Part shown: in pieces, positions 1-17,728 of the stretch
Numbering within the stretch: the first letter of the stretch is position 1
Layout of the letters: each line of letters begins with the position of its first letter
Virus genome (UHGV): UHGV-2152132
Reading direction: 5' to 3' (one strand)
Length of the DNA stretch: 18,425 nucleotides
Origin: a virus
Translations under genes and position numbers: made by a program
Notes under the pieces: generated by a model
What the model was told of the DNA's origin: nothing
Databases searched by the model: none
Seen by the model: only the letters and a program-made list of their open reading frames with translations

Positions 1-897
1 CTATGACTTGCTGTTTTCAGTAAGAGTCTTATCATCCAAAGAATTTATTCTAGAAATTCTTTTTAACTCATTAAGATAATCAACCTCGTTTTCTAAGAAC
101 CAATGAAGAACTTTAGAATTGCCAAGTAATTTATTAATATATGACTGGATTATAACGAATTTCAACATATCTGAACCATACTCGGTTTGAAGCTTTTTCG
201 TTTCTTCCGAAGTTGTTGCCATTTCTTGTTCCAGACGAAGTATGGTTTTTTTTATGTCCTTTTTATAGGGAGTGTTTTTCCCTTTATTTACTATCATCGA
301 TGCCGGTGTTGCATCCAAGATGCTCATTGCAAATTTTTTACTATAATTATCAAAATTAATCATTGTACCGACTGCTTCAATTTGGCGAATTGGCTTCATT
401 TTCCTCAAAACGTCAAATGTAGCCTTAGGTATAGGTTTATCAGAAAGTTTCGCAATTACACTTGAATCTATGCCGTTCATCACATTCGCTTTATCTTTTA
501 TGGCATCAACAGATATGCCCAAAGCAGCACTAAGTTTTTCAATTGATACTTTTGCCAGAGACTTAATTATCATTCTATGTTCTTCAACTACATTTATATG
601 ATTCACTTGTTTGTTAGGAGTGAAAGCATCATCTATGCTCGAAAGTATACATGGAGCTTTTTCTATACCTAAGTCTTTTAAAGCCTCAACCCTTAAATGG
701 CCATCAAGTATCTTAGTGACATCTTTATCTTTGTCATAGAATACTATTATTGGTTCAATAATACCTAAGCTTTCGATAGAGGTAACTATTTGATGATATT
801 TATGGCTTCGCTTTACGTTTTCTAATAATTCCTTAGATGGAATTAACTTATTAGTTTCCAGGTAAATAAAATTATCGCCAAAACGTATCTGAATCAT
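1..897 (-). CDS. ParB/Srx N-terminal-domain protein (ParB-like 2), third gene of the recombinase operon
   Basis: 298-aa ORF with stop TAG at 1-3. Its ATG (895-897) overlaps the upstream stop as ATGA (894-897). The N-terminal segment IIEPIIVFYDKDKDVTKILDGHLRVEALKDLGIEKAPCILS fits the ParB/sulfiredoxin fold pattern (beta strand, DGHxR motif, helix). The remaining helical part resembles the HTH plus RepB-type C-terminal region of plasmid ParB/RepB proteins. Recognised by eye only. Confidence 0.65.
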   Translation of the reverse strand: MIQIRFGDNFIYLETNKLIPSKELLENVKRSHKYHQIVTSIESLGIIEPIIVFYDKDKDVTKILDGHLRVEALKDLGIEKAPCILSSIDDAFTPNKQVNHINVVEEHRMIIKSLAKVSIEKLSAALGISVDAIKDKANVMNGIDSSVIAKLSDKPIPKATFDVLRKMKPIRQIEAVGTMINFDNYSKKFAMSILDATPASMIVNKGKNTPYKKDIKKTILRLEQEMATTSEETKKLQTEYGSDMLKFVIIQSYINKLLGNSKVLHWFLENEVDYLNELKRISRINSLDDKTLTENSKS

Positions 898-1790
898 TTT
901 AATACCTCTTTGTTTACTGGGGTTAATATCTGAGATGGTAGTTCTGAAAGATTCTCTTGTTCAAGTATATGTTGAAAGCTTTTATTCATCATTATGATGT
1001 TAAAAATCTCATTTACTATTAGTAGGTTGGTTTTTATGAATTTTGAGTTGTTATAAACAGATTTATGTTCAGCGATACTATTTTCATAAAGCTCAATCAA
1101 CTCCTCTGCAGTCATCCTTTTTGATGGTTTGTGATAATAAAATCCGGCTGCTTTTGCACCTTTATTCCCAACTGTTCTTTGATTTAGAATGTGTTTTATC
1201 TTTATAATGTCCCGACTTTTTATTAATTTTTTATCATATGCTTCGGTAAGAATATCTTGTGCTTCCTCAGTTTCACATCTTGCAAATTGCACTGCGAGAT
1301 ACAGAGGCAAATTACCCCGTTCGACTGCTGAGAGAAGTTTATGCTCTCCCTTATCAAGTAGCATATTAATACTGCTCACCCAGTTCGATGAATATCCAGT
1401 AATCTCACTTATTTCGGAGTCTGAAAGTCCTCTGATTTTCATGTCTTTAATCACCTGTAATAACTCATTAGAACGTGGTCTTCTCCTTGCAATGTTTTCA
1501 ACTAAACTCATAACGTAAGCATCTTCTTCTGATACATCTCTTATAATTGCTGGAATAATAGTTTCACCTAATGCAACGAGAGCCTCTATTCTCCCTTGAC
1601 CACAAATTAAAGCATATTTGAAATCGCCTTCATCAATAGCTCTTACGCTTATAGGCTTGCTTAATCCTCTTTTTTTTATGCTTTCCTTTATTTCTTCATG
1701 CACTACCTTATTTCTTGTTCGTGGGTTAAGAAATTTTATTTTTGCAATCTCAATTTGAATTATTGGGAATTCATTTTTTTCAGGCAGCAT
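894..1790 (-). CDS. ParB/Srx N-terminal-domain protein (ParB-like 1), second gene of the recombinase operon
   Basis: 298-aa ORF. Its ATG (1788-1790) overlaps the recombinase 3' end by 11 nt (ATGCTGCCTGA). The segment LNPRTRNKVVHEEIKESIKKRGLSKPISVRAI...YALICGQGRIEALVALGETIIPAIIRDVSEEDAYVMSLVENIARR is a typical ParB N-domain (GxGR arginine-patch-like motif, then VEN..R) followed by an HTH-like segment (LSDSEISEITGYSSNWVSS). It has the same length as the downstream gene and looks like a paralogue. Confidence 0.72.
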   Translation of the reverse strand: MLPEKNEFPIIQIEIAKIKFLNPRTRNKVVHEEIKESIKKRGLSKPISVRAIDEGDFKYALICGQGRIEALVALGETIIPAIIRDVSEEDAYVMSLVENIARRRPRSNELLQVIKDMKIRGLSDSEISEITGYSSNWVSSINMLLDKGEHKLLSAVERGNLPLYLAVQFARCETEEAQDILTEAYDKKLIKSRDIIKIKHILNQRTVGNKGAKAAGFYYHKPSKRMTAEELIELYENSIAEHKSVYNNSKFIKTNLLIVNEIFNIIMMNKSFQHILEQENLSELPSQILTPVNKEVLK

Positions 1791-3336
1791 ATAGTTCCCT
1801 CACTTTCATGCGAGTAATAATTTGTAGAAGTTTATCAAGATTATCAAATCTATAGAGATCTAATCGAATGTTGTTTGTTTCCGTCATGCACATTTTATTA
1901 TATTCGTTTTCAATCTTTGGTATGATATAAAAATCAAGAGGTGAAATATTTTGTGAATTCATTCGTATAACAATTGTTATGTCTGCTTTCTGTGAGTTAT
2001 CAAACCGGACTTTCCATCTAAGTTTACCTGATTTCATATGTATGCATTTAGTAACAAGGACGGAAATTAAAAACTCATCATTGATGTAAAGCATTGGGGC
2101 ATATTTATACTCGTCTATATGACAGTTGCTTTTTAAAATTTCACCCTTAAAATCCTCAATTATCTCTGAGTAAAATGATCTTAGTGCTTCATTTATTTTG
2201 AGATAGCTGTAATCATGTTCTGGCTTATAACCAATCAAAGTATATGCTCTTAAAAGACCACCAAATCGGGTTCTATAAACAGAAGATGAAGGGCCTGTAT
2301 CATCTTCATCAATGATAAAGCCTGATAGTTTTCCATTAGATTCTAATTTTTGTTTTAGTTTTTCTAATAGATCTTCATTAGTCAAATGAATGGATCGGAG
2401 CTGAATTATTTCTTGAGCTTTATTGTATTTTTTCTTTGAAATAATAGGTTTATATGCCTTGTCACATCTAACCCATTCATGTTTGGGGTTTTTTACAAGC
2501 CTACTTTTTAATTTAGATGAGGTTTTGTTATATATGTTGTTTCCAATATATTTTTCATTTGTCAAAATTTGATGTATTTTTGCACGAGTCCATAATGTAC
2601 CATTTTCTGCAGGTATGTTCTGTTCATTTAATCTCTCAGCAATAATGAATTCTGGGACGTTATTATCTATAAAGAGATCATATATTCTATTTACAATTTT
2701 TATTTCATTTTTTGGTCCCGGAATTAATATTACCCTATCTGTTTGAATACTCTTTCTTTTGCGGAAACTCAATATTTCTTTAGCTATGCCATTTTCGTCT
2801 ACTAAAAGACGTCTCAGCCCATAACCAGCCATACCGCCTTGATGATAACCAAGCTTTATTAAATTTACTTGCCCTATAAATACCTTTTCAGATAGATTCC
2901 TGCTGTGATATGCAGCACTAGATCTTTTTATATTCAGTATAACAGAGGACTCTAAAGGGAAATCTTTAGTGGGTATAGGTTCGGAACAATATATAAGATC
3001 TACACCATTTCTCTCAAATAGAAAGGAATAATATGCCGCTTCATCACTATTTTGAAAACGACCAAAACGGCTCACATCATAAAATAATACAGCCTGTATA
3101 TCTATTTTCTTTTGTTCTACATCGCTAAGTAACTGCTGCAAAGAATGCCTGCCTACGATACTGACTCCGCTCTTACCTGAATCATCGTAGGTATAAGCGA
3201 TTTCCATATTGTTCTTTTCAGCATAATCTTTGATATATTCGGACTGATTATGTAAAGAATATTGCTGATGGTCGGTAGACATCCTCAAGTACTGCGCGAC
3301 CCTAACTCTATGATTTTTGTCATTTTCGCTAGCCAT
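1780..3336 (-). CDS. Large serine recombinase (resolvase/invertase catalytic domain plus recombinase domain, atypical C-terminus)
   Basis: 518-aa ORF. VAQYLRMSTDHQQYSLHNQ...DDSGKSG...LFYDVSRFGRF is the serine-recombinase catalytic domain, with the nucleophile Ser in RMST. The middle region (GYGLRRLL..., HEWVRCDKAYKPIISKKKYNKAQ) looks like the recombinase domain of large serine recombinases. I see no Cys4 zinc ribbon. The last ~130 aa are unassigned. GAGG (3345-3348, minus strand) lies 8 nt upstream of the ATG at 3336. Confidence 0.85.
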   Translation of the reverse strand: MASENDKNHRVRVAQYLRMSTDHQQYSLHNQSEYIKDYAEKNNMEIAYTYDDSGKSGVSIVGRHSLQQLLSDVEQKKIDIQAVLFYDVSRFGRFQNSDEAAYYSFLFERNGVDLIYCSEPIPTKDFPLESSVILNIKRSSAAYHSRNLSEKVFIGQVNLIKLGYHQGGMAGYGLRRLLVDENGIAKEILSFRKRKSIQTDRVILIPGPKNEIKIVNRIYDLFIDNNVPEFIIAERLNEQNIPAENGTLWTRAKIHQILTNEKYIGNNIYNKTSSKLKSRLVKNPKHEWVRCDKAYKPIISKKKYNKAQEIIQLRSIHLTNEDLLEKLKQKLESNGKLSGFIIDEDDTGPSSSVYRTRFGGLLRAYTLIGYKPEHDYSYLKINEALRSFYSEIIEDFKGEILKSNCHIDEYKYAPMLYINDEFLISVLVTKCIHMKSGKLRWKVRFDNSQKADITIVIRMNSQNISPLDFYIIPKIENEYNKMCMTETNNIRLDLYRFDNLDKLLQIITRMKVRELYAA

Positions 3337-3359
3337 GCACGAAACCTCATGGATGATTC

Positions 3360-3388
3360 AATACAATGTAGTGGATAAAATTGATCAA
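3360..3388 (-). promoter_or_regulatory. Candidate sigma70 promoter of the recombinase-ParB-ParB operon
   Basis: On the minus strand: TTGATC (3388-3383), 17-nt spacer, TGTATT (3365-3360). Each hexamer matches 4/6, and the predicted start is about 17 nt upstream of the ATG. AT-rich DNA gives many such matches, so this is weak. Confidence 0.25.
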
Positions 3389-3506
3389 ATTTTAACCGAA
3401 TTCAACTGTTTTATCATTGATTAGAGCGAATTTGGTAGATCTTCGAGGTGTATGATAATCGAGAAGAGATGTGAATTATTTAGCTGATATGACCGACAGC
3501 TTTCGT

Positions 3507-3556
3507 TATGTGGACTCAATGTCCCCATTTGTAAATGGCTATGCTTAGTCCACATA
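3507..3556. repeat. 50-bp dyad-symmetric site centred on GT (candidate serine-recombinase att/res site or operator)
   Basis: TATGTGGACT caatgtcc CCATTT GT AAATGG ctatgctt AGTCCACATA. There is a perfect 10-bp outer inverted repeat (3507-3516 / 3547-3556) and a perfect 6-bp inner inverted repeat (3525-3530 / 3533-3538) around the central GT at 3531-3532. It lies between the integrase stop and the recombinase start. No T-tract follows on either strand, so it is not a canonical terminator. Confidence 0.6.
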
Positions 3557-3618
3557 GGTTAATGGTGTGATTATTAATTCTTTAACTAAATCAAGATAGT
3601 TAATCCATCATGGGAGAG

Positions 3619-4848
3619 TTATGCGGCAATAACTTTGCATTTTTGAGACGAAACATAGTCACTCCACCATTGCATGAGAACCACCCGTTCAGTGAGATAC
3701 TCTGCACGATTGTAGGCTGCAATTATTTCATCTTTCTTCGAGTGGGCAAGGGCGGCTTCTAAGACATCAGTCCTAAACTTGCCAGACTCCTCAGCAGCCG
3801 TTCTAGCAATGGATCGCATACCGTGAGCTACAAGCTCACCTCCGAAACCCATACGGATTATGGCCGCATTAGCTGTTTGTTCATGCATGTGATTGAGTGG
3901 AGCTTTGATACTGGGGAACACCCACTCTCTATGCCCGCTGATGACTTTCATTAAATCCAAAACTCGCAAAGCTTCTTTGCTCAGTGGAACTTTGTGAGGC
4001 TTCTTCATTTTCATAAACTCCGCCGGGATGTTCCACATGCCAGTTTCAATATCAATATCTGACCATCTTGTGCGAACAGCTTCACCTGGGCGAACCCATG
4101 TGAGAAGTTGCCACTCAATCAGTAGCCTTGTTTCCAAACGGATAGAAGCATTGTTTAGAGCAACCAAGAAGCGAGGGAGTTCGGAAGGGGGTAATGCTGG
4201 CATATTCTGTTTTTTTGGCTTGCTGAACCGTTGCCCCAGGTTGTCTGCCGGGTTGAATTCTATGAGTTCTTCTGTTGCTGCATAGCGGAAAATTTCATTC
4301 AGGCGGGATATGATGCGGCGAAGTGTTTCAAGGACACCTCGTTTTTCTATGGGTTCTAAATGCTGTTTAAGCATTTTAGGGCGAATCTCCTTAATTGGGG
4401 TATCACCCAATGTGGAAAAGATATTTCTCTCTAGGCTTCGCCAGATGTCGTTAGCATGATCTTGGGAGATGCCTGACGTTTTGACTTTCTCATCAAGCCA
4501 CTTCTTGGCTACTGCTTGAAATGTATGTTCCGTGGCATCTTTCAGTGCATTGGCTTTTTGGTTGTTATGAACTTGGGGGTCTATACCATTTGTAAGCAAC
4601 GACAAGTATTCATCACGTAAAGCTCGTGCCTTCGCAAGTGTAAGGTGAGGATAGGTTCCTAAGCTCACCTTAGTTCGCTTTTTGGTCACAGGCACTGCAT
4701 ATCTGAAATACCAATTTTTCTTCCCTCCCTTCGCCAGGGGAGCGATTCGCAACAGCAAACCATCGCCGTCAAAAAGGTTAACCTCTTTTTCGGCAGGTTT
4801 GGTGCTTTTGATTTCAGTGTCAGTGAGCTTCTTAGCGATTTTGGCCAT
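3619..4848 (-). CDS. int: Tyrosine integrase, P4/CP4-57 (IntA/SlpA-like) family
   Basis: The ORF runs 3619-4929. I prefer the ATG at 4848 (MAKIAKKLTDTEIKSTKP...) because this family starts with the K-rich LTDxxIK N-terminus. Catalytic signature: WVRPGEA (R), HGMRSIARTAA (HxxR), AAYNRAEY (Y). It is adjacent to the ssrA 3' copy. Confidence 0.88.
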   Translation of the reverse strand: MAKIAKKLTDTEIKSTKPAEKEVNLFDGDGLLLRIAPLAKGGKKNWYFRYAVPVTKKRTKVSLGTYPHLTLAKARALRDEYLSLLTNGIDPQVHNNQKANALKDATEHTFQAVAKKWLDEKVKTSGISQDHANDIWRSLERNIFSTLGDTPIKEIRPKMLKQHLEPIEKRGVLETLRRIISRLNEIFRYAATEELIEFNPADNLGQRFSKPKKQNMPALPPSELPRFLVALNNASIRLETRLLIEWQLLTWVRPGEAVRTRWSDIDIETGMWNIPAEFMKMKKPHKVPLSKEALRVLDLMKVISGHREWVFPSIKAPLNHMHEQTANAAIIRMGFGGELVAHGMRSIARTAAEESGKFRTDVLEAALAHSKKDEIIAAYNRAEYLTERVVLMQWWSDYVSSQKCKVIAA

Positions 4849-4946
4849 GTTTGGGACCCTCGATTTTAGGACCCATCTTCGTGGGTCCCATTCAGGGTGC
4901 CATAACTCGTAGTTCTCAGCAATTCTCACTAGACTACAATAGACGT

Positions 4947-4978
4947 AAAAAAGCCCGCAGAGCTTGTGCTGTGCGGGC
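4947..4978 (-). terminator. Rho-independent terminator downstream of the displaced ssrA 3' copy
   Basis: Minus strand reads GCCCGCACAGCACAAGCTCTGCGGGC followed by TTTTTT (4952-4947). There is a 7-bp GC-rich stem (4953-4959 / 4972-4978) plus 3 inner pairs and a 4-nt loop. Confidence 0.6.
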
Positions 4979-5010
4979 TTAGTAGACTTTACTGAACTTC
5001 AGTACATCAA

Positions 5011-5059
5011 TATTTGGTGGAGCTGGCGGGAGTTGAACCCGCGTCCGAAATTCCTACAT
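5011..5059 (-). repeat. Displaced copy of the tmRNA 3' end (att core); direct repeat of 17362-17410
   Basis: tggtggagctggcgggagttgaacccgcgtccgaaattcctacat (5015-5059) is identical to 17366-17410. The 4 upstream bases (tatt) are also shared, giving 49 bp. Identity stops at 5060 (a) versus 17411 (c). Confidence 0.92.
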
Positions 5060-5144
5060 ACCATTTTTAGTATAGTAAAAATAGTAATTTATGTTTTAAA
5101 ACAAAGAATTAGTTTTTTGTTGTGTTTGCCCGTTTTATACATTT

Positions 5145-6404
5145 TTAACTCTCCGCCGCCAAATTGCCGCCATCAGGTAGATGCTCATGCTTCATCATTT
5201 GGTGGATAAGAACTTCTACTTTTCTGAAGGTCGTATTGTCATAGTACTCAACAAGTGATTCATCGAAATCCTCTATCCAACCTTTTGCTGGGCCATTTGT
5301 TTGATATCTGACGGCAGTTGGTGAGTGGAAGTTGGGAGTAGCCTTTAAAGTGCTAAACACAGCCCATGATACTGGGTTAGTCACTTTAAATATTCTCTTC
5401 AATTCAGGGCAGTACAACGTGTTTGGTACAGTTATTCGTTCCATTTTAGGGGGTAAGATTACATTAATACCGATGTCACTATCTTTTTGATTAAGTATTT
5501 TTGTCGAACGATACGATATTCCAGAAATATCCTTGTTGCTATCACTGCTAATCCATTGCATTAATAGGTTTGGAATAATGTATTCTTTGTGAAAATTTGC
5601 ATGTTCATGATCTTTTGTATAGTTACAGGCCAATACTAAAGGCCATGCGATTAGTTTTGAAACCTTATCATTAATCGGGTCTGAGAAATCACTATAATTT
5701 TCATTGTTGTATTCATCTATGCGTTCAGGCTCAAATGAAAATGAATGCTCACTTGGAGTGGAACGTAGTGCTGACGTTAGGTTGTATCCGAGGTCTAGTA
5801 TTCTAATTTGTGATGATTCGTCTTCAGTAATAAATGATGATATATACAGCTTATCGAAATCTGGTTTTCCCATCTCTTGCCAGCAAACAAATATTGATGT
5901 CCCAAGATATAGACATGGTAAACCTGAAACTGAGAAGCGTTGTGCGCTTACCAAATGTCTTTGACTAAAAGGAATGTGGAATAATTCTTCTCTATTTTTT
6001 AGTATGTTTTCACTTTTCCTAACCCGAAATAACGGAGTTCGTCTATTACAAAGTTTTGTTAACGGAACCGTCATTTGATAAATGTGGTTCTTCATTGCTG
6101 GTGAACCTATTATAGCTTGGTTGAAAGTATTATAGGCTTCTTTAATATTACCGTTAAGATAATGGGTTAACGTTTCAGATATTTTATTGGAGAATGTTGT
6201 GATTGAAATCGATCTTTTTTTTACCTCTTTTATTGTTTCGTTGTCTGGATAGTCCTTTCTTATTTTATCAATAGCTTCAAGATAACAATCAATCCTGTTT
6301 TTAAAGTTGGATACAATGTCGCCATTGGCCTTGAATGGGGGTTGAAGTAGTTCATATTGTAATAATGAATCTGATATTTCTTTCAGTTCTGAATATTTGC
6401 GCAT
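5145..6404 (-). CDS. RES-domain protein (419 aa), candidate NAD+-targeting toxin/abortive-infection effector; prophage cargo
   Basis: LFRVRKSE...ELFHIPFSQRHLVSAQRFSVSGLPCLYLGTSIFVCWQEMGKP matches the RES-domain core (Arg in xRFx, G.P.LYL, Glu). ISGISYRSTKILNQKDSDIGINVILPP supplies the conserved Ser and the following NxxxF/L strand. A ~130-aa helical N-terminal region and a ~90-aa C-terminal extension are unassigned. The ATG at 6404 is 10 nt after the int stop on the same strand. GC is lower than in the neighbouring phage genes (22/60 at 5221-5280). Confidence 0.62.
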   Translation of the reverse strand: MRKYSELKEISDSLLQYELLQPPFKANGDIVSNFKNRIDCYLEAIDKIRKDYPDNETIKEVKKRSISITTFSNKISETLTHYLNGNIKEAYNTFNQAIIGSPAMKNHIYQMTVPLTKLCNRRTPLFRVRKSENILKNREELFHIPFSQRHLVSAQRFSVSGLPCLYLGTSIFVCWQEMGKPDFDKLYISSFITEDESSQIRILDLGYNLTSALRSTPSEHSFSFEPERIDEYNNENYSDFSDPINDKVSKLIAWPLVLACNYTKDHEHANFHKEYIIPNLLMQWISSDSNKDISGISYRSTKILNQKDSDIGINVILPPKMERITVPNTLYCPELKRIFKVTNPVSWAVFSTLKATPNFHSPTAVRYQTNGPAKGWIEDFDESLVEYYDNTTFRKVEVLIHQMMKHEHLPDGGNLAAES

Positions 6405-6414
6405 GAGAATTATT

Positions 6415-7431
6415 TCAATTAAGGTTGATTAATGGATTCTTAGTCACAGCATCTTCGAGATGTTCTGGAGAAAAATGTGCATATATCATTGTCATTTTAA
6501 TATCAGTGTGACCCAAGATTTCTTTAAGTACCAGTATGTTTCCGCCGTTCATCATAAAGTGACTGGCGAATGTATGACGCAGAACGTGGGTACATTGACC
6601 TTCCGGCAGCTCAATACCGGCCCTCTTTACTGCTCGTTCAAAAGCTTTTCTGCATGGAGTGAATAATTTTCCTCTCTTTTTGGGGAGTTCGTCATACAGA
6701 TCCTGTGATATTGGCACTGTTCTGTTTTTCTTGCCCTTAGTCTTGGTGTAAGTGATGCGGTATTTTGACAACTGGTGTCCCTGTAGGTTTTCGGCTTCAC
6801 TCCATCGCGCGCCGGTGGCCAGGCAGATTTTTGTAATCAAAAGCAGGCTGGGGCTTTGAGAATCAGCGCAGGCATCCAGCAGACGTTTAATTTCTTCCGG
6901 GGTCAGGAACGCCAGTTCACCCTCAGCAATTTTAAATGTTGGCAGCCCGGCAAGTGGGTTGGGGGCTGACCAATGGCCCAGCTTTTTCAGTGTACCAAAT
7001 ACCGATGATAGGTTACGCTGTTCAAGGTTTACCGTGCGGGGCTTAACGGGCGACATAAGCGTGCCATCTTCATTTCGCACTTCACCTTTTAGCCGTGCTT
7101 CGCGGTATTTCGTAAAGTCACCGGCTGTCAGTTCTGAGGCGATGGGATCGCCTAGACCATTACAGATAATTTTAAGTTTCGCCATGAGGCGCTTGGGGTC
7201 TGCGAGTGTCTGACCGTACAGGGAATACCAAAGCTCAATTAATTCTGATAGGCGTCGCCGATCATCCTTTTCTCCTAACCACGGTTTTTTGTTCACTTCT
7301 TCCATTGTGAAGCTTTCAAACGCAATAGCTTCGCCTTTGGTAGCAAATTGCTTACGCACGCGCTTGCCATTGCGTCCATTGGGATAGCACTCACACAACC
7401 ATTTTCCGTTCGGCTGTTTTCTGATGGTCAT
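6415..7431 (-). CDS. int: Tyrosine integrase, P2/186 family
   Basis: 338 aa. MTIRKQPNGKWLCECYPNGRNGKRVRKQFATKGEA closely parallels my recollection of the 186 Int N-terminus. Catalytic motifs are ATGARWSEAE, HVLRHTFASHFMMNGGNILVLKEILGH and MTMIYAHF. Its ATG lies 1 nt after the cI stop. Confidence 0.92.
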   Translation of the reverse strand: MTIRKQPNGKWLCECYPNGRNGKRVRKQFATKGEAIAFESFTMEEVNKKPWLGEKDDRRRLSELIELWYSLYGQTLADPKRLMAKLKIICNGLGDPIASELTAGDFTKYREARLKGEVRNEDGTLMSPVKPRTVNLEQRNLSSVFGTLKKLGHWSAPNPLAGLPTFKIAEGELAFLTPEEIKRLLDACADSQSPSLLLITKICLATGARWSEAENLQGHQLSKYRITYTKTKGKKNRTVPISQDLYDELPKKRGKLFTPCRKAFERAVKRAGIELPEGQCTHVLRHTFASHFMMNGGNILVLKEILGHTDIKMTMIYAHFSPEHLEDAVTKNPLINLN

Positions 7432-7432
7432 T

Positions 7433-8065
7433 TCAAAGGCTCTTAATGATTTTCAGTGCGCGGCCTACTACCTCAATGTCATCCAGGCCGCACTCAAACG
7501 ATGAATCATCCTGATGCACTACTAATTTGTTTCCCGGGAGTCGAGTCAATTTAACGATGCTTTTTATCCCGTCGATATCGACTAACCACATACCATTTAC
7601 TGGTGGTGTTTGGTTGCGATCTATTAAATAAGAATCACCAGAAGTAGTCACCAGCAGTAGGTTGCTTGAGTCTGAGGGGAGTATGCTGCTATCAATGATT
7701 GCTTTTCCAGCATCGACCAATAAACCACCGTTGAGAGTCGCCTTGTCAATTTCAGGAGATACTAGTTCAGAAAGAGGTACAACCTTGCTGGAGTTCACGG
7801 AATTGATATTTTTTTTAGGTTCAATGTTTGGACCTGGCTCCCCCTGTCCGGTGGTTAGCCACAGTAAAGAAACTCCTGTTTCCAAGGCGCACTGAATCAC
7901 CCACTCTGCAGGAAAACTATCTCTTAAGTATCTGTTTGCCATGGTGCTTTTTGATGCGCCTAAGTGATCGCAAAGTTGCTGTCTGGACTTGAAATCATAG
8001 GCTGCCATTAGTCTATGGATAGCCTCTCTTCCCCCTGTATTCTCTCCAACCTTTACCTGTATCAT
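7433..8065 (-). CDS. cI: Immunity repressor, 186 CI-like
   Basis: 210 aa. The N-terminal HTH region (QQLCDHLGASKSTMANRYLR...CALETGVSLLWLTTGQGEP) resembles 186 CI as I recall it. It sits upstream of int and divergent from apl. AGGA lies 8-9 nt upstream of the ATG at 8065. Confidence 0.8.
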   Translation of the reverse strand: MIQVKVGENTGGREAIHRLMAAYDFKSRQQLCDHLGASKSTMANRYLRDSFPAEWVIQCALETGVSLLWLTTGQGEPGPNIEPKKNINSVNSSKVVPLSELVSPEIDKATLNGGLLVDAGKAIIDSSILPSDSSNLLLVTTSGDSYLIDRNQTPPVNGMWLVDIDGIKSIVKLTRLPGNKLVVHQDDSSFECGLDDIEVVGRALKIIKSL

Positions 8066-8077
8066 TTTTTAATCCTG

Positions 8078-8106
8078 TTGACGTATCAAATATTGGATCG
8101 TAGTAT
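8078..8106 (+). promoter_or_regulatory. pR-like early lytic promoter (drives apl-cII)
   Basis: TTGACG (8078-8083), exactly 17 nt of spacer, TAGTAT (8101-8106). One copy of the 17-bp repeat fills the spacer and the second copy sits at the predicted start site. Confidence 0.55.
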
Positions 8107-8129
8107 CTCGATGTATCAAATATTGAATC
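8083..8129. promoter_or_regulatory. Two 17-bp direct repeats GTATCAAATATTGRATC, 30 bp apart (candidate CI operators)
   Basis: Copy 1 is at 8083-8099 (GTATCAAATATTGGATC) and copy 2 at 8113-8129 (GTATCAAATATTGAATC), matching 16/17. Each contains a short dyad TCAA-N3-TTGR. They overlap the pR-like promoter. Confidence 0.5.
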
Positions 8130-8131
8130 AA
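8102..8131 (-). promoter_or_regulatory. Possible pL-like lysogenic promoter, face-to-face with pR
   Basis: On the minus strand: TTGATT (8131-8126), 18-nt spacer, GATACT (8107-8102), each 4/6. It would give transcripts convergent and overlapping with pR, as known for P2 Pe/Pc and 186 pR/pL. This call is weak. Confidence 0.3.
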
Positions 8132-8132
8132 G

Positions 8133-8160
8133 TAAAACGAGATAAAACGACGTAAACCAA
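8133..8160 (+). promoter_or_regulatory. Three 10-bp-phased direct repeats TAAAACGA / TAAAACGA / TAAACCAA (candidate Apl/Cox boxes)
   Basis: Copies at 8133-8140, 8143-8150 and 8153-8160, between the pR start and the apl RBS. They resemble the P2 Cox-box style TTAAAGNCA, which is arranged as helically phased direct repeats. Confidence 0.4.
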
Positions 8161-8184
8161 ACCTTAATCGGGAGATACTGCACT

Positions 8185-8427
8185 ATGAGCACTGATATTT
8201 CAATTCGTGTACCAAAAGAGATGGCTACGCCTGCAGAGTTCGCGGAATGGGAAGGTATCTCCCGCGGCTCCGTGTATCAAAAAATTCACCATGGTCAGCT
8301 TGCTAAATACATGGTCAAGAAAGAAAAAAACAAAGGCCGCGTAAGCCTGCGTTATTTAATGTACAAAACCGATCAGGTCCGTGAATCCCTCGGTCATTCC
8401 AACTTCCGCGTCATTGTTGGTAAGTAA
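8185..8427 (+). CDS. apl: Apl/Cox-like excisionase and transcriptional regulator
   Basis: 80 aa. It is the first gene of the rightward operon, divergent from cI. The C-terminal ESLGHSNFRVIVGK resembles the 186 Apl C-terminus (LGHSRFQLVIGA as I recall). GGGAG lies 9 nt upstream of the ATG. Confidence 0.7.
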   Translation: MSTDISIRVPKEMATPAEFAEWEGISRGSVYQKIHHGQLAKYMVKKEKNKGRVSLRYLMYKTDQVRESLGHSNFRVIVGK

Positions 8428-8459
8428 GTTCAATTATGAGAACTTTCTAAGGGGGTAGC

Positions 8460-8855
8460 ATGTTTGATTATAAGATTTCCAAACACCCGCATTTTGATGA
8501 AGCCTGTAGAGCTTTTGCACTTCGTCACAATATGGCGAAGCTGGCAGAACGTGCAGGAATGAATGTCCAGACTCTGCGAAACAAACTCAACCCAGATCAA
8601 CCGCATCAGCTCAATGCGCCAGATATCTGGCTACTTACCGATCTGACGGAAGATTCAACGCTGGTAGACGGTTTTCTGGCACAGATTCACTGCCTGCCAT
8701 GTGTACCGATTAATGAGGTGGCAAAAGAGAAACTGCCACATTACGTCATGAGTGCAACCGCAGAGATCGGGCGTGTTGCTGCAGGTGCGGTATCCGTTCC
8801 GACGTTCCTCGTTGCCGCTTCTCCCAAACCAACGTTTAAGAAAATGCAGAGGTAA
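8460..8855 (+). pseudogene. cII: cII (186-type) truncated at about codon 112 and fused to foreign sequence
   Basis: Residues 1-112 (MFDYKISKHPHFDEACRAFALRHNMAKLAERAGMNVQTLRNKLNP...GAVS) track 186 CII as I recall it (169 aa). The remaining 19 aa (VPTFLVAASPKPTFKKMQR) read through antisense tail-fibre sequence and the invertase crossover site. Confidence 0.7.
8819..8844. promoter_or_regulatory. Hin/Gin/Cin/Pin-type 26-bp crossover site (invertase-proximal, orphan)
   Basis: TTCTCCCAAACC AA CGTTTAAGAAAA compares with hixL TTCTTGAAAACC AA GGTTTTTGATAA. There are two imperfect inverted 12-bp half-sites around an AA core, 55 bp upstream of the invertase ATG. No second inverted copy was found in the window. 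Confidence 0.7.
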
Positions 8856-8899
8856 CAGCTAACTGGCATCATCTCCGGTTTTTATTCAGGGGGATGATC

Positions 8900-9466
8900 A
8901 TGCTTATTGGCTATGTACGCGTGTCAACAAATGACCAGAACACCGATTTGCAACGTAATGCACTGAACTGCGCGGGATGTGAGCAGATTTTTGAGGACAA
9001 AATCAGTGGCACTAAGTCCGACAGACCGGGGCTGAAAAAACTACTCAGGACACTATCGGCAGGAGACACGCTGGTTGTCTGGAAGCTGGACAGGTTGGGG
9101 CGCAGTATGCGGCATCTTGTTACGCTGATAGAAGAGTTGCGCCAGCGTGGTGTGAATTTCAGAAGCCTGACTGACAGTATTGATACCAGTACCCCAATGG
9201 GCCGTTTCTTTTTTCATGTCATGGGTGCCCTGGCTGAAATGGAACGCGAACTGATAGTTGAACGTACCAGGGCAGGGCTGGCTGCAGCTCGTGCCAAAGG
9301 CAGAGTAGGTGGACGCCGTCCTAAGTTGACCACCGAACAGTGGGCACAGATTGGGCGTTTACTCGAGGCCGGAGAATCAAGACAGCGTATTGCACTGATT
9401 TTTGATGTAGGCGTTTCTACCATTTATAGAAAATTTCCGGCAAATAAGATCAATGAATCCCCCTGA
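8900..9466 (+). CDS. Site-specific DNA invertase, Hin/Gin/Cin/Pin family (small serine recombinase)
   Basis: MLIGYVRVSTNDQNTDLQRNAL...DTLVVWKLDRLGRS...MGRFFFHVMGALAEMERELIVERT...GVSTIYRKFP is near-collinear with Pin/Hin. I prefer the start at 8900 (family N-terminus, GGGGG 6-7 nt upstream). The track ORF starts at 8894. Confidence 0.92.
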   Translation: MLIGYVRVSTNDQNTDLQRNALNCAGCEQIFEDKISGTKSDRPGLKKLLRTLSAGDTLVVWKLDRLGRSMRHLVTLIEELRQRGVNFRSLTDSIDTSTPMGRFFFHVMGALAEMERELIVERTRAGLAAARAKGRVGGRRPKLTTEQWAQIGRLLEAGESRQRIALIFDVGVSTIYRKFPANKINESP

Positions 9467-9514
9467 ATCAGCATTATGTTGATTATCCCTGCAAGCAGAC
9501 AAATACCGTTATTT

Positions 9515-9572
9515 TGTGTGAATAACGACACAACTGCGCTTAGCTGTTTGTCAGGCACAATCACTTCAACAT
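9515..9572 (+). promoter_or_regulatory. PF-like Ogr-dependent late promoter
   Basis: TGT-N12-ACA dyad at 9515-9532 (TGTgtgaataacgacACA), the activator-binding element of P2-family late promoters, which is centred near -55. A candidate -10 CAACAT at 9567-9572 puts the start about 55 bp from the dyad centre and about 30 nt upstream of the FI ATG. Confidence 0.5.
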
Positions 9573-9608
9573 AGGGCGAAGCCTAATCCAATCAGGAGGT
9601 TCGCCACT

Positions 9609-10781
9609 ATGGCTCAGGATTACCACCACGGGGTGCGCGTTGTTGAAGTCAACGAAGGCACCCGATCTATTACCACGGTGAGCACCGCCATCGTGGGTAT
9701 GGTCTGCACGGGCGATGATGCCGATGCAAAAATGTTTCCTCTTAATAAACCCGTGCTGATCACTGATGTGCTGACTGCCAGCGGTAAAGCGGGTGAGTCA
9801 GGTACTCTGGCCCGTTCGCTGGATGCCATCGCTGACCAGGCAAAACCCGTGACCATTGTTGTGCGTGTGCCGCAGGGTGAAACGGAAGACGAAACCACGA
9901 CCAATATCATCGGCGCAGTGACTGCTGAAGGTAAAAAAACAGGTATGAAAGCCCTGTTATCTGCCCAGTCACAGCTCGGCGTTAAACCGCGCATTCTCGG
10001 CGTGCCAGGCCACGACACCAAGGCGGTAGCTACTGAGTTGCTGAGCGTGGCGCAAAGCCTGCGTGGATTTGCTTACCTGTCAGCGTATGGCTGCAAGACA
10101 GTGCAGGAGGCGATCACTTACCGCGAAAACTTCAGCCAGCGCGAAGGGATGCTGATCTGGCCTGACTTTACTGGCTGGGACACGGTGCTGAATGCCGAAG
10201 CAACGGCATATGCCACCGCCCGTGCGCTTGGTCTGCGCGCCAAAATTGACGAGCAGACCGGATGGCACAAAAGCCTGTCCAACGTGGGCGTGAACGGTGT
10301 CACCGGAATTTCTGCAGATGTGTTCTGGGATCTGCAGGACCCGGCAACCGATGCAGGTCTGCTGAACCAGAACGACGTCACCACGCTTGTGCGTAAAGAC
10401 GGTTTCCGCTTCTGGGGTTCCCGCTGCCTGAGTGATGACCCGCTCTTTGCCTTCGAAAACTACACCCGCACGGCGCAGGTGCTGATGGACACGATGGCAG
10501 AAGCACACATGTGGGCGGTGGATAAACCGCTTAACCCGTCGCTGGCCCGCGACATTATCGAAGGTATCCGCGCCAAAATGCGCAGCCTGGTCAGTCAGGG
10601 CTATCTCATTGGTGGTGATTGCTGGCTGGATGAGTCGGTGAACGACAAAGACACGCTGAAAGCCGGAAAACTCACCATCGACTACGACTACACGCCAGTG
10701 CCGCCACTTGAAAACCTGATGCTGCGTCAGCGCATCACCGATCAGTACCTGGTGAATTTCGCCAGCCAGGTCAGCGCGTAA
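9609..10781 (+). CDS. FI: Contractile tail sheath protein (P2 gpFI)
   Basis: 390 aa. [54 protein letters not shown] matches the P2 FI N-terminus as recalled. AGGAGG RBS. Confidence 0.93.
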
Positions 10782-16740: not shown

Positions 16741-16764
16741 AACCTGCTACGGCAGGTTTTTATT
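16741..16764 (+). terminator. Rho-independent terminator after ogr, overlapping the stop of the convergent gene
   Basis: AACCTGC tacg GCAGGTT followed by TTTTATT. The 7-bp stem is at 16741-16747 / 16752-16758. Confidence 0.6.
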
Positions 16765-17242
16765 CATCTGGGATCTCACCCGTTTCAAGAAAATGTATAA
16801 AGCCAGGCTCATCTATGATGATTGTGCCTTTCATCCTGGCTGCCGATACTTTTGATGGGCCTGCATTGTAACCGCAACAGAGCATCTGAAGGCTTTGGGT
16901 TACAGAGGTTCTTACCGTTAATCCTTGTTCATTCGCCTTATCAACCAATCTTTCTTTATCTGCTTTCTTAAATCCGGTGAAACACACATCGAATGTATTT
17001 TTTTTCGGACCAGACTGCTTAGTGAGATGTGAGTAGTTTTCGGGGAGGAATGACGCGCATTCCTGAATGGCTTGTTCTGGTGAATCGTACTGTTTAAGAA
17101 TGCGGTCTTTTCGGAAGGTTTTTATTCGATCGGTGTTCTTACAAATGCCCTGTATATGATTTTCGCTATAACTGATGCTCTGTATTGAGTGAACTCCGAT
17201 ACGACCATTTGCATTGATGTAAACAAAGTGAAGTTCTTCCAT
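16760..17242 (-). CDS. WYL-domain plus BRCT-domain protein (160 aa), prophage cargo
   Basis: The N-terminal HFVYINANGRIGVHSIQSISYSENHIQGICKNTDRIKTFRKDRI fits the WYL-domain pattern (F.Y...G....R.i......yi.GyC......R.FR.DRI). The C-terminal FDVCFTGFKKADKERLVDKANEQGLTVRTSVTQSLQMLCCGYNAGPSKVSAARMKGTIIIDEPGFIHFL fits BRCT as in the LigA C-terminus (F..TG......R........G..V..SVS..t..Lv.G...GSK...A...G..ii.E..F). AGAGG lies 7 nt upstream of the ATG. No HTH is evident. Confidence 0.6.
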   Translation of the reverse strand: MEELHFVYINANGRIGVHSIQSISYSENHIQGICKNTDRIKTFRKDRILKQYDSPEQAIQECASFLPENYSHLTKQSGPKKNTFDVCFTGFKKADKERLVDKANEQGLTVRTSVTQSLQMLCCGYNAGPSKVSAARMKGTIIIDEPGFIHFLETGEIPDE

Positions 17243-17270: not shown

Positions 17271-17305
17271 GGCGACAGGCAAGATAGACGCAAAAGTCTG
17301 TCGCC
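17271..17305. repeat. 8-bp perfect inverted repeat GGCGACAG-N19-CTGTCGCC upstream of the WYL-BRCT gene
   Basis: Arms at 17271-17278 and 17298-17305, 29-63 nt upstream of the ATG at 17242. It could be an operator or a 5'-UTR hairpin. Confidence 0.45.
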
Positions 17306-17325
17306 ATTTTGCCGCCACTACCAAA

Positions 17326-17355: not shown

Positions 17356-17365
17356 TTGTTTTATT

Positions 17366-17728
17366 TGGTGGAGCTGGCGGGAGTTGAACCCGCGTCCGAA
17401 ATTCCTACATCCTCGGTACTACATGCTTAGTCAGTCTTTATATTCGCTTGCCAGCTGCGGACGGACACGCCACTAACAAACTAGCCTGATTAAGTTTTAA
17501 CGCTTCAACCCCAGGCAGGGCTTCCACGCGATCTCTTTTGGGTTTGACCTCTCTTGATCCCCGTCCTAAGAGCGGAGGCTAGGGAGAGAGGGCTCTAAGC
17601 AGGTTATTAAGCTGCTAAAGCGTAGTTTTCGTCGTTTGCGACTATTTTTTGCGGCTTTTTACGAGGCCAACCGCCCCTCGGCATGCACCTTGGGTTTCGC
17701 AAATCCCGTCGAATCCAGAATCAGCCCC
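17366..17728 (-). ncRNA. ssrA: tmRNA (SsrA), complete, 363 nt
   Basis: The reverse complement starts GGGGCTGATTCTGGATTCGACGGGATTTGCGAAACCC and ends GGTTCAACTCCCGCCAGCTCCACCA. It contains the tag reading frame. The tRNA-like acceptor and T-arm are at the 3' end. Confidence 0.97.
17607..17639 (-). other. tmRNA tag-peptide reading frame ANDENYALAA plus stop
   Basis: Minus strand reads GCA AAC GAC GAA AAC TAC GCT TTA GCA GCT TAA. Confidence 0.95.

Follow-up and report, generated by a model that had tools for sequence, protein, structure and literature searches.

Introduction

NAD+ phosphorylases with a RES domain are widely distributed toxins, and what they do in the physiology of the cell is still a matter of debate. 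The described systems, namely MbcT/MbcA, Xre-RES of P. putida, NatT/NatR and KnaT/KnaA, consist of a toxin of about 150–250 amino acids (aa) and an adjacent Xre/DUF2384 antitoxin. The related ParT is accompanied by its cognate antitoxin ParS and has a protein target, Prs. According to a study from 2024, no RES system was tied to phage immunity (PMC11535050). Here we describe a solitary, long-form protein of 419 aa, predicted to carry a RES domain, that is encoded in the virus genome UHGV-2152132 (18,425 nt, the whole stretch being referred to as the window). Its open reading frame (ORF) starts with ATG and occupies positions 5145..6404 of the minus strand, stop codon included, directly behind the integrase gene of a prophage.

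Compared to the known RES toxins, the protein is longer, no Xre/DUF2384 antitoxin is encoded next to it, its core contains a variable insertion of 26 residues, and an N-terminal helical bundle and C-terminal helices are found throughout its family. In addition, the gene is located in the lysogenic operon of a prophage. Because an antitoxin gene is missing and the protein is not a small toxin, the definition of a Xre-RES-type toxin–antitoxin system does not apply. In contrast to ParT, neither a cognate antitoxin nor a protein target is evident. With the DSR1/DSR2 SIR2 effectors and the TIR effectors, only the proposed logic is shared, i.e. one polypeptide with regulatory and NAD+-consuming domains; their catalytic fold is SIR2 or TIR, unrelated to the RES/ADP-ribosyltransferase (ART) fold proposed here, and the ORF protein gives no PADLOC match. 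Similar to the defence cargo of the P2 family (old/tin, Z/fun and int-att), the ORF is a variable, low-GC single gene in a fixed P2/186-like slot, but its family is not among the recognised defence families.

Relatives have been named in several phages. CARTA_33 of Escherichia phage Cartapus, annotated as 'putative RES protein, NAD+ binding domain', belongs to the same family, as do proteins of the Salmonella phages RE2010 and SopEPhi. Homologues from Enterobacterales phages are 37–40% identical to the ORF protein. YopC of Bacillus phage SPbeta ('RES domain-containing protein') is also a member, with 28% identity, and follows yopB, a gene that is absent from the window locus. In all four cases the record is an annotation only. 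We consider the ORF a good and easily tested candidate for a single-protein RES antiviral effector, for which an anti-phage, NAD+-consuming role with autoinhibition in cis is plausible.

Results and Discussion

Assignment to the RES fold

The R, E and S motif blocks quoted in a first-pass annotation of this DNA are all present in the ORF: AQRFSVSGLPCLYLG (aa 154–168), CWQEMG (aa 174–179), ISYRST (aa 296–301) and INVILPP (aa 313–319). In an alignment of 49 sequences reaching down to 25% identity, R156, S158, G161, Y166, W175 and E177 are invariant, and R127, R129, R149, S300, N314 and P318 are conserved to at least 90%. The proposed catalytic residues are thus retained among the homologues, in line with the first-pass annotation, with R156, Y166 and E177 in the first group and S300 and N314 in the second. 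The corresponding codons are located on the minus strand at 5937–5939 (R156), 5907–5909 (Y166), 5874–5876 (E177), 5505–5507 (S300) and 5463–5465 (N314).

For NatT, the active-site set R23/R82/Y93/S184/N193 was reported (PMC11535050), for KnaT the set R27/E48/S115 (PMC10896132), and an R-Y-N signature of RES ARTs was described by Iyer and colleagues (PMC9503650). The residues of the ORF protein match the NatT and KnaT sets in order, the equivalence being one of motif alignment and not of superposition. The spacing from R to E amounts to 21 residues in both the ORF protein and KnaT, and the conserved residues fit the R-Y-N signature as well.

RES was the only recurrent Pfam match among the homologues (16/28 and 15/49 members, best E 8.5e-6). 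The family member P0192 passes the curated gathering cut-off of Pfam RES (PF08808/COG5654; 23.2 bits) with 24.4 bits over model positions 19–133 and matches the family profile of the window protein at E 1.2e-58, which establishes a transitive homology link to RES. The AlphaFold2 model of the ORF protein, with a predicted local distance difference test score (pLDDT) of 78 and a predicted template modelling score of 0.80, points to a RES/ART-like fold. Its best structural matches are MbcT and NatT, both NAD+ phosphorylases. PHROGs places the ORF protein in phrog_7835, a family of unknown function.

Several results weigh against this assignment. On its own, the ORF protein does not reach the Pfam RES cut-off (E 0.049, 14.1 bits, aa 140–207, model positions 10–76 of 157). 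Searches of PDB sequences with hmmsearch, based on the family profiles A1 and A3 as well as on A4 (core only), retrieved no RES chain, only helical-bundle noise or nothing. An hhalign comparison of the family core with a KnaT-centred alignment gave a probability of 0.5, which does not amount to a negative result given the narrowness of that alignment (≥60% identity); KnaT had been located for this by walking plasmid CP050281, where KnaA (DUF2384) and KnaT appear as a canonical pair. Foldseek against PDB and BFVD returned nothing significant and only faint hints to Tpt1/KptA and DarT, and no model of NCBIfam or PADLOC (PADLOC-DB 2.0.0, 2023) matches the ORF protein. The failure of the PDB profile searches, hhalign and Foldseek suggests that the protein represents a very divergent RES lineage.

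Of the checks proposed in the first-pass annotation, the profile search thus stayed below the cut-off for the protein itself and exceeded it for P0192, and the structure prediction came out in favour of a RES/ART-like fold. The label 'RES domain' rests on fold, family-level and motif evidence and not on a direct curated match. As judged from alignments and model, the protein belongs to the RES branch of the ART superfamily, and a RES fold together with an active enzyme is very likely.

Domain architecture and family

In the predicted structure, aa 1–118 (6051..6404, minus strand as all parts of the ORF) form a helical bundle with helices at 2–14, 30–51, 56–83, 87–99 and 102–110 and block-mean pLDDT values of 84–97. 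This bundle is a candidate regulatory or sensor domain; neither the ORF protein nor the family alignment gave an informative Pfam match for it. The RES/ART-like catalytic core follows at aa 119–345 (5370..6050), and the C-terminal region at aa 346–419 (5145..5369) contains helices 380–386 and 392–403 according to secondary structure and pLDDT. Within the core, a variable acidic insertion of 26 residues (aa 217–242; 5679..5756) was modelled with low confidence (pLDDT <50 at 217–240). Its length ranges from 0 to about 40 residues among the homologues, and its majority fraction is 0.10–0.16. In alignment A3, the majority fraction of the core is 0.46–0.51 in comparison to 0.28–0.29 for the flanking domains.

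The family is large. In an exhaustive profile search, 2,719 clusters (50% identity) reached E ≤1e-3, and 1,126 of these reached E ≤1e-30. Among 150 listed matches, nearly all comprise 350–420 aa and cover most of the profile, and the N-terminal bundle, the RES core and the C-terminal helices are common to nearly all of them. The extra N- and C-terminal regions, which the first-pass annotation had noted as unassigned, are a fixed feature of the family among the listed members, and not an oddity of the ORF protein. The family is represented in Enterobacterales prophages, on Bacillus megaplasmids and Bacteroidota plasmids, and in phage SPbeta (YopC), and a few members are already annotated as 'RES domain-containing'. 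In the literature on the family, its PHROG and its accessions, no experimental characterisation was found. The ratio of nonsynonymous to synonymous substitution rates was uninformative, as the near-identical copy in E. coli PEC1011 differs by 1 nucleotide only. One member, P0147 (611 aa, L088:3522–5357), carries a C-terminal restriction-endonuclease domain (RE_LlaMI/MvaI_BcnI) and adjoins a Gabija-like pair of an ATPase-TOPRIM protein and a helicase.

Search for a partner gene

The first-pass annotation had seen no Xre-type antitoxin, and this holds in a closer search. Between int and the att core no ORF of at least 60 aa is found on the same strand; small overlapping ORFs occur on the other strand only. 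The toxin-binding domain of Xre/MbcA/ParS antitoxins (DUF2384) matched none of the 28 members of the alignment in Pfam at E ≤1. In other contexts of the family the neighbours differ, comprising integrases, a Gabija-like pair, methyltransferase/restriction endonuclease-like proteins, and PLD and PDDEXK proteins. The RES gene is thus solitary, without a conserved partner gene.

Three groups of candidates for a hidden antitoxin were dismissed. Small ORFs in the surroundings of the RES gene are encoded on its complementary strand and lack support. ORFs of 143–157 aa upstream of three distant homologues are mutually non-homologous and contain no Pfam domains. In SPbeta (L093:4399–6062), YopC (442 aa) is preceded by YopB, a protein of 75 aa with a helix-turn-helix domain of the Cro/C1 type (HTH_26, E 4e-17). 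As a bare helix-turn-helix protein, YopB was rejected as an antitoxin; in the SPbeta lineage, it may control transcription of the RES gene. There, yopB-yopC are located a few genes upstream of arbitrium aimR/aimP and near a SieB-family gene.

Operon context and the int-att slot

The ORF is preceded on the same strand by int, encoding a tyrosine integrase (Int_N + Phage_integrase) of a 186/Fels-2-like prophage (6415..7431, minus strand), as assigned by Pfam and by the RefSeq annotation of a near-identical locus. Upstream of it lies the gene of the CI repressor (Phage_CI_repr + Phage_CI_C by Pfam; 7433..8065, minus strand), the first gene of the cI-int-RES lysogenic operon. The distance of 10 nt between int and the ORF, given in the first-pass annotation, is correct; the location of the whole set on the minus strand had not been stated there. 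The spacer, AATAATTCTC (6405..6414, minus strand), lacks a Shine-Dalgarno-like purine run, which suggests that the ORF is a member of the operon with weak or coupled translation. Homologues in the loci L083 and L004 begin 3–11 nt past int, and out of 75 IMG/VR loci, the five with the best RES match have an estimated gap of 11–14 nt. The order cI-int-RES is shared by Cartapus, E. coli loci and IMG/VR contigs. The gene is, as first proposed, a single prophage-encoded gene without a conserved partner and, by its position, cargo of the cI-int operon of a P2/186-family prophage.

With 35.7% GC, the ORF is below int (46.9%) and the tail genes (55.8%); the lower GC content had been noted before on the basis of 22 G+C in 60 positions at 5221–5280, a count that could be reproduced. 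The stop codon is followed after 85 nt by the 49-bp att core of ssrA. Just past this core, a hairpin with a T run (4951..4965, minus strand) resembles an intrinsic terminator and is the first terminator candidate 3' of the ORF; from its position, it is probably the native terminator of ssrA. It was the sole terminator-like hairpin in a scan of 4850–8300 and lies past the partial ssrA copy. The best sigma-70-like match of the region, TTAACG-17-TATAAT (10/12; 6129–6157, minus strand), is located on the coding strand within the 5' part of the ORF. Transcription from there might yield a product shortened at its N-terminus; alternatively, the match may simply be due to chance in AT-rich DNA.

The slot that harbours the gene is bordered by the int stop and the arm repeats of attP, and cargo is inserted in between. 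It is empty in L006, L007 and L009–L012, where the core follows 117–133 bp past int, and it contains a RES homologue in L004. In L003 and L005, whose int is 93% identical in each case, it is occupied by proteins of 518 aa (7017–8573) and 343 aa (7014–8045), respectively, both without a Pfam or PADLOC match. These two proteins are candidate cargo or defence genes. Behind more distant relatives of int, packed ORFs match Old (ATPase-TOPRIM), PDC-S15 (FRG) and PDC-S49 (KAP NTPase), as well as PRTase_III-A, an Aga nuclease, TIR-like proteins and, weakly, RiboL-PSP HEPN. FRG is itself a domain of the ART superfamily.

The slot thus is fixed, its content varies between similar phages, and known defence genes are included, as is characteristic of a defence hotspot. 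The homologues of Cartapus and RE2010 occupy the same position, and the copies of SopEPhi and SE479_1PHIH2 open their records, which is also the case for RE2010. In a survey from 2026, 3% of the P2 defence systems were assigned to int-att, which is classed there as a minor hotspot (PMC13586616). The position is a real cargo and defence slot, already published and not newly discovered. The first-pass annotation had set it apart from the old/tin and Z/fun hotspots; as a new kind of locus it does not stand, in view of that survey and of Cartapus and RE2010. Alternative cargo at this position, for which the annotation had proposed a survey of P2/186-like prophages, is seen in the unknown and defence-type genes listed above, beside empty slots.

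Of 80 IMG/VR loci with family members, 75 show an int homologue immediately upstream, almost all with cI too. Where enough downstream sequence is available, most loci have the ssrA core 92–147 bp past the RES gene. In these 75 loci, which were chosen for carrying a RES gene and are not an unbiased survey, a limit that weakens the contrast, the identity to the genes of the window is 90–96% for int, 36–96% (median 40%) for RES and 52–100% for cI. Such a contrast between int and RES is the pattern exhibited by rapidly exchanging or diversifying conflict genes, as read from the alignments. The stronger variation of the flanking domains relative to the core is a second trait of this arms-race kind.

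Proposed function and alternatives

As the best explanation of the locus, we propose a solitary RES gene carried as lysogenic-conversion cargo, whose product is an anti-phage, NAD+-consuming effector held in check by its own helices. In the lysogen, the gene would be co-transcribed at a low level with cI and int; expression from the lysogenic operon is probable. The N- and/or C-terminal helical domains of the protein would keep the enzyme inactive and so replace the missing antitoxin. This autoinhibition in cis is a tentative element that we infer, and we would place it somewhat below an even chance. A cue from an infecting phage would release the enzyme, and the RES core would then use up NAD+/NADP+. 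The most likely reaction is the one known from MbcT and NatT, a phosphorolysis to ADP-ribose-1''-phosphate and nicotinamide. Loss of NAD(P)+ would finally arrest the cell and abort the infection. Provided that the enzyme is active, NAD+ depletion is fairly probable as its mode of action, as opposed to ADP-ribosylation of a target. For an anti-phage role of the protein we see a slight preponderance, and the explanation as a whole stands at about an even balance.

Beyond the slot itself, the family is found in defence-type contexts elsewhere, with a fusion to a restriction-endonuclease domain beside a Gabija-like pair and with methyltransferase/restriction endonuclease-like, PLD and PDDEXK neighbours. 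The intact state of the gene in a decayed prophage also counts in favour of the proposal. Some observations speak against an immune role. The N-terminal domain is uniformly conserved, which is unexpected for a sensor that tracks variable phage proteins. The RES systems characterised so far have functions in persistence or in stabilising plasmids, and as of 2024 no RES toxin was implicated in immunity (PMC11535050).

With the same fold and a defence role, the protein could also act like ParT by ADP-ribosylating a specific protein (e.g. Prs) or a nucleic acid, the helices choosing the target and not gating the enzyme. This is unlikely in view of the best structural matches, MbcT and NatT, which are NAD+ phosphorylases, and of the conserved R-Y-N set with E and S, which is the one discussed for NAD+ phosphorolysis; moreover, nothing points to a target. 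A catalytically dead protein of RES fold with a structural or regulatory role would be in accordance with the marginal sequence similarity to canonical RES proteins and with the large core insertions. However, every residue class of active RES enzymes is invariant or nearly so across thousands of divergent clusters, which indicates that catalysis was maintained, and we regard a dead enzyme as highly improbable.

Leaving antiviral defence aside, the gene might encode a self-regulated growth-arrest or addiction toxin with another benefit for the prophage or the host, e.g. keeping the prophage in place, dormancy or persistence under stress, in the manner of NatT or the plasmid-stabilising KnaAT. 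Every RES system characterised by experiment has a role of this kind, and retention of the gene in a decayed prophage could be explained by an addiction module as well. Addiction normally needs an unstable antidote, though, and none is encoded. Defence cargo is a better fit to the genes with which the slot is shared, those of the Old, FRG, KAP, PRTase and TIR types, and to the extreme allelic divergence next to an int conserved at 90–96%, so that this option appears still less likely than a ParT-like enzyme. A factor that benefits the phage during infection or induction, either in host takeover by ADP-ribosylation (as for Alt/Mod of T4) or by destroying NAD-derived immune signals, would agree with the presence of the family in phage genomes, including yopC of SPbeta. 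In the circular phage genome, the RES gene is followed by attP and another gene of the same strand, and it could for this reason be expressed outside lysogeny, too. Against this, the RES gene consistently closes the cI-int lysogenic operon or is placed between cI and int, the family also exists outside phages, on megaplasmids and beside restriction-type genes, and the gene persists in a remnant that is no longer able to grow lytically. We consider such a phage-benefit function improbable.

If the anti-phage effector proposed here proves protective, the RES/ART fold would join TIR and SIR2 among the NAD+-based antiviral effectors. It would also provide a natural example of an antitoxin function taken over by domains within the toxin protein, and a name for a gene that thousands of prophages of Salmonella, Klebsiella and Escherichia carry as 'hypothetical'. 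The family with its 2,719 clusters might even represent the first RES-domain antiviral system, in the form of a one-protein sensor-effector with fused helical domains in place of the Xre-type antitoxin and a hyper-diversifying allele series at int-attP of 186-like prophages that integrate in ssrA. This wider claim is doubtful at present; if true, RES toxins would gain their so far missing immune role. The fold assignment and the int-att hotspot are already in the public record.

Prophage remnant, att sites and neighbouring elements

The prophage comprises 12.3 kb between two att cores, is 186/Fels-2-like and was integrated in ssrA. Its attR (5011..5059) is a 49-bp copy of the ssrA 3' end and an exact repeat of attL (17362..17410), which lies inside the complete tmRNA gene ssrA (17366–17728, minus strand, identified with ARAGORN). 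Relative to the near-identical prophage of E. coli PEC1011, it lacks about 20 kb with the genes for replication, head, lysis and baseplate. In the region 8460–9609, cII is truncated to 131 aa (Pfam model positions 1–111 of 146), and is followed by a DNA invertase gene of the Hin/Gin type (8894–9466) and then directly by the tail sheath gene. The prophage is now defective, a remnant; the RES ORF is still intact despite the loss of most of the prophage genome.

The 3' end of the ORF overlaps a direct repeat of GCCGCCA (read as TGGCGGC on the strand of the gene) with copies at 5155–5161 and 5166–5172, i.e. within 5155..5172; the two copies are putative arm-type Int sites of the P arm. All phages in the alignment whose int is 91–93% identical have this TGGCGGC pair at a distance of about 110 bp to the ssrA core, with any cargo or none. 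The clade with 68–73% identical int shows GATCCAC/GTCCAC-type repeats in its place. From this comparison, the repeats are most simply read as arm-type Int sites. An exact TTGCCGCCA is located at 17309–17317 near the other prophage end; there, the second att core has a similar pair, GTCGCCA....GCCGCCA, at a distance of about 45 bp (17300–17317). The last 9 residues of the ORF protein, DGGNLAAES, are encoded by the tandem TGGCGGC arm repeats, as seen in the DNA alignment of L002–L007 and L083. Homologues whose stop lies just before the arm repeats have no DGGNLAAES-type tail. The C-terminal tail occurs only in a scattered subset of the homologues, and the scattered 'GG(N/T)LAAE' C-terminus in distantly related members is explained by the tail codons being the arm repeats.

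At the other end of the prophage, integration leaves a complete ssrA copy followed by phage DNA (17243–17366). A gene for a protein of 160 aa with a weak C-terminal BRCT match (16760–17242, minus strand) is located directly downstream of the complete ssrA in the lysogen, and read-through from the strong ssrA promoter into this gene is possible. In the phage genome, it is located across attP from the RES gene, and in another phage it is the gene immediately before a RES homologue. As a dedicated partner of the RES gene it was rejected: phage MLG42 has the gene with an empty slot, Mannheimia phage PHL101 has it without any RES match, and it is present in 176 of 5,426 E. coli genomes. The gene is widespread in P2-like phages under varying annotations ('DNA ligase', 'putative exonuclease', 'BRCT domain-containing'), and its N-terminal segment KTFRKDRIL may be WYL-like. 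In PHL101 and in the loci L103/L104 it directly follows cI. The latter, which encode protein P0122 and belong to another 186-like lineage, exhibit the order cI, 160-aa BRCT-like gene, RES homologue, int; there, the RES gene precedes int within the lysogenic operon and does not follow it.

A second integrative element (1–4929) adjoins attR, resulting in a tandem array of mobile elements at ssrA. It contains an integrase gene of the CP4-57 type (3619–4929, Arm-DNA-bind_3), a large serine recombinase gene (1780–3336) and two ParB/RepB-like genes (1–897 and 894–1790). The same neighbours are found in locus L084.

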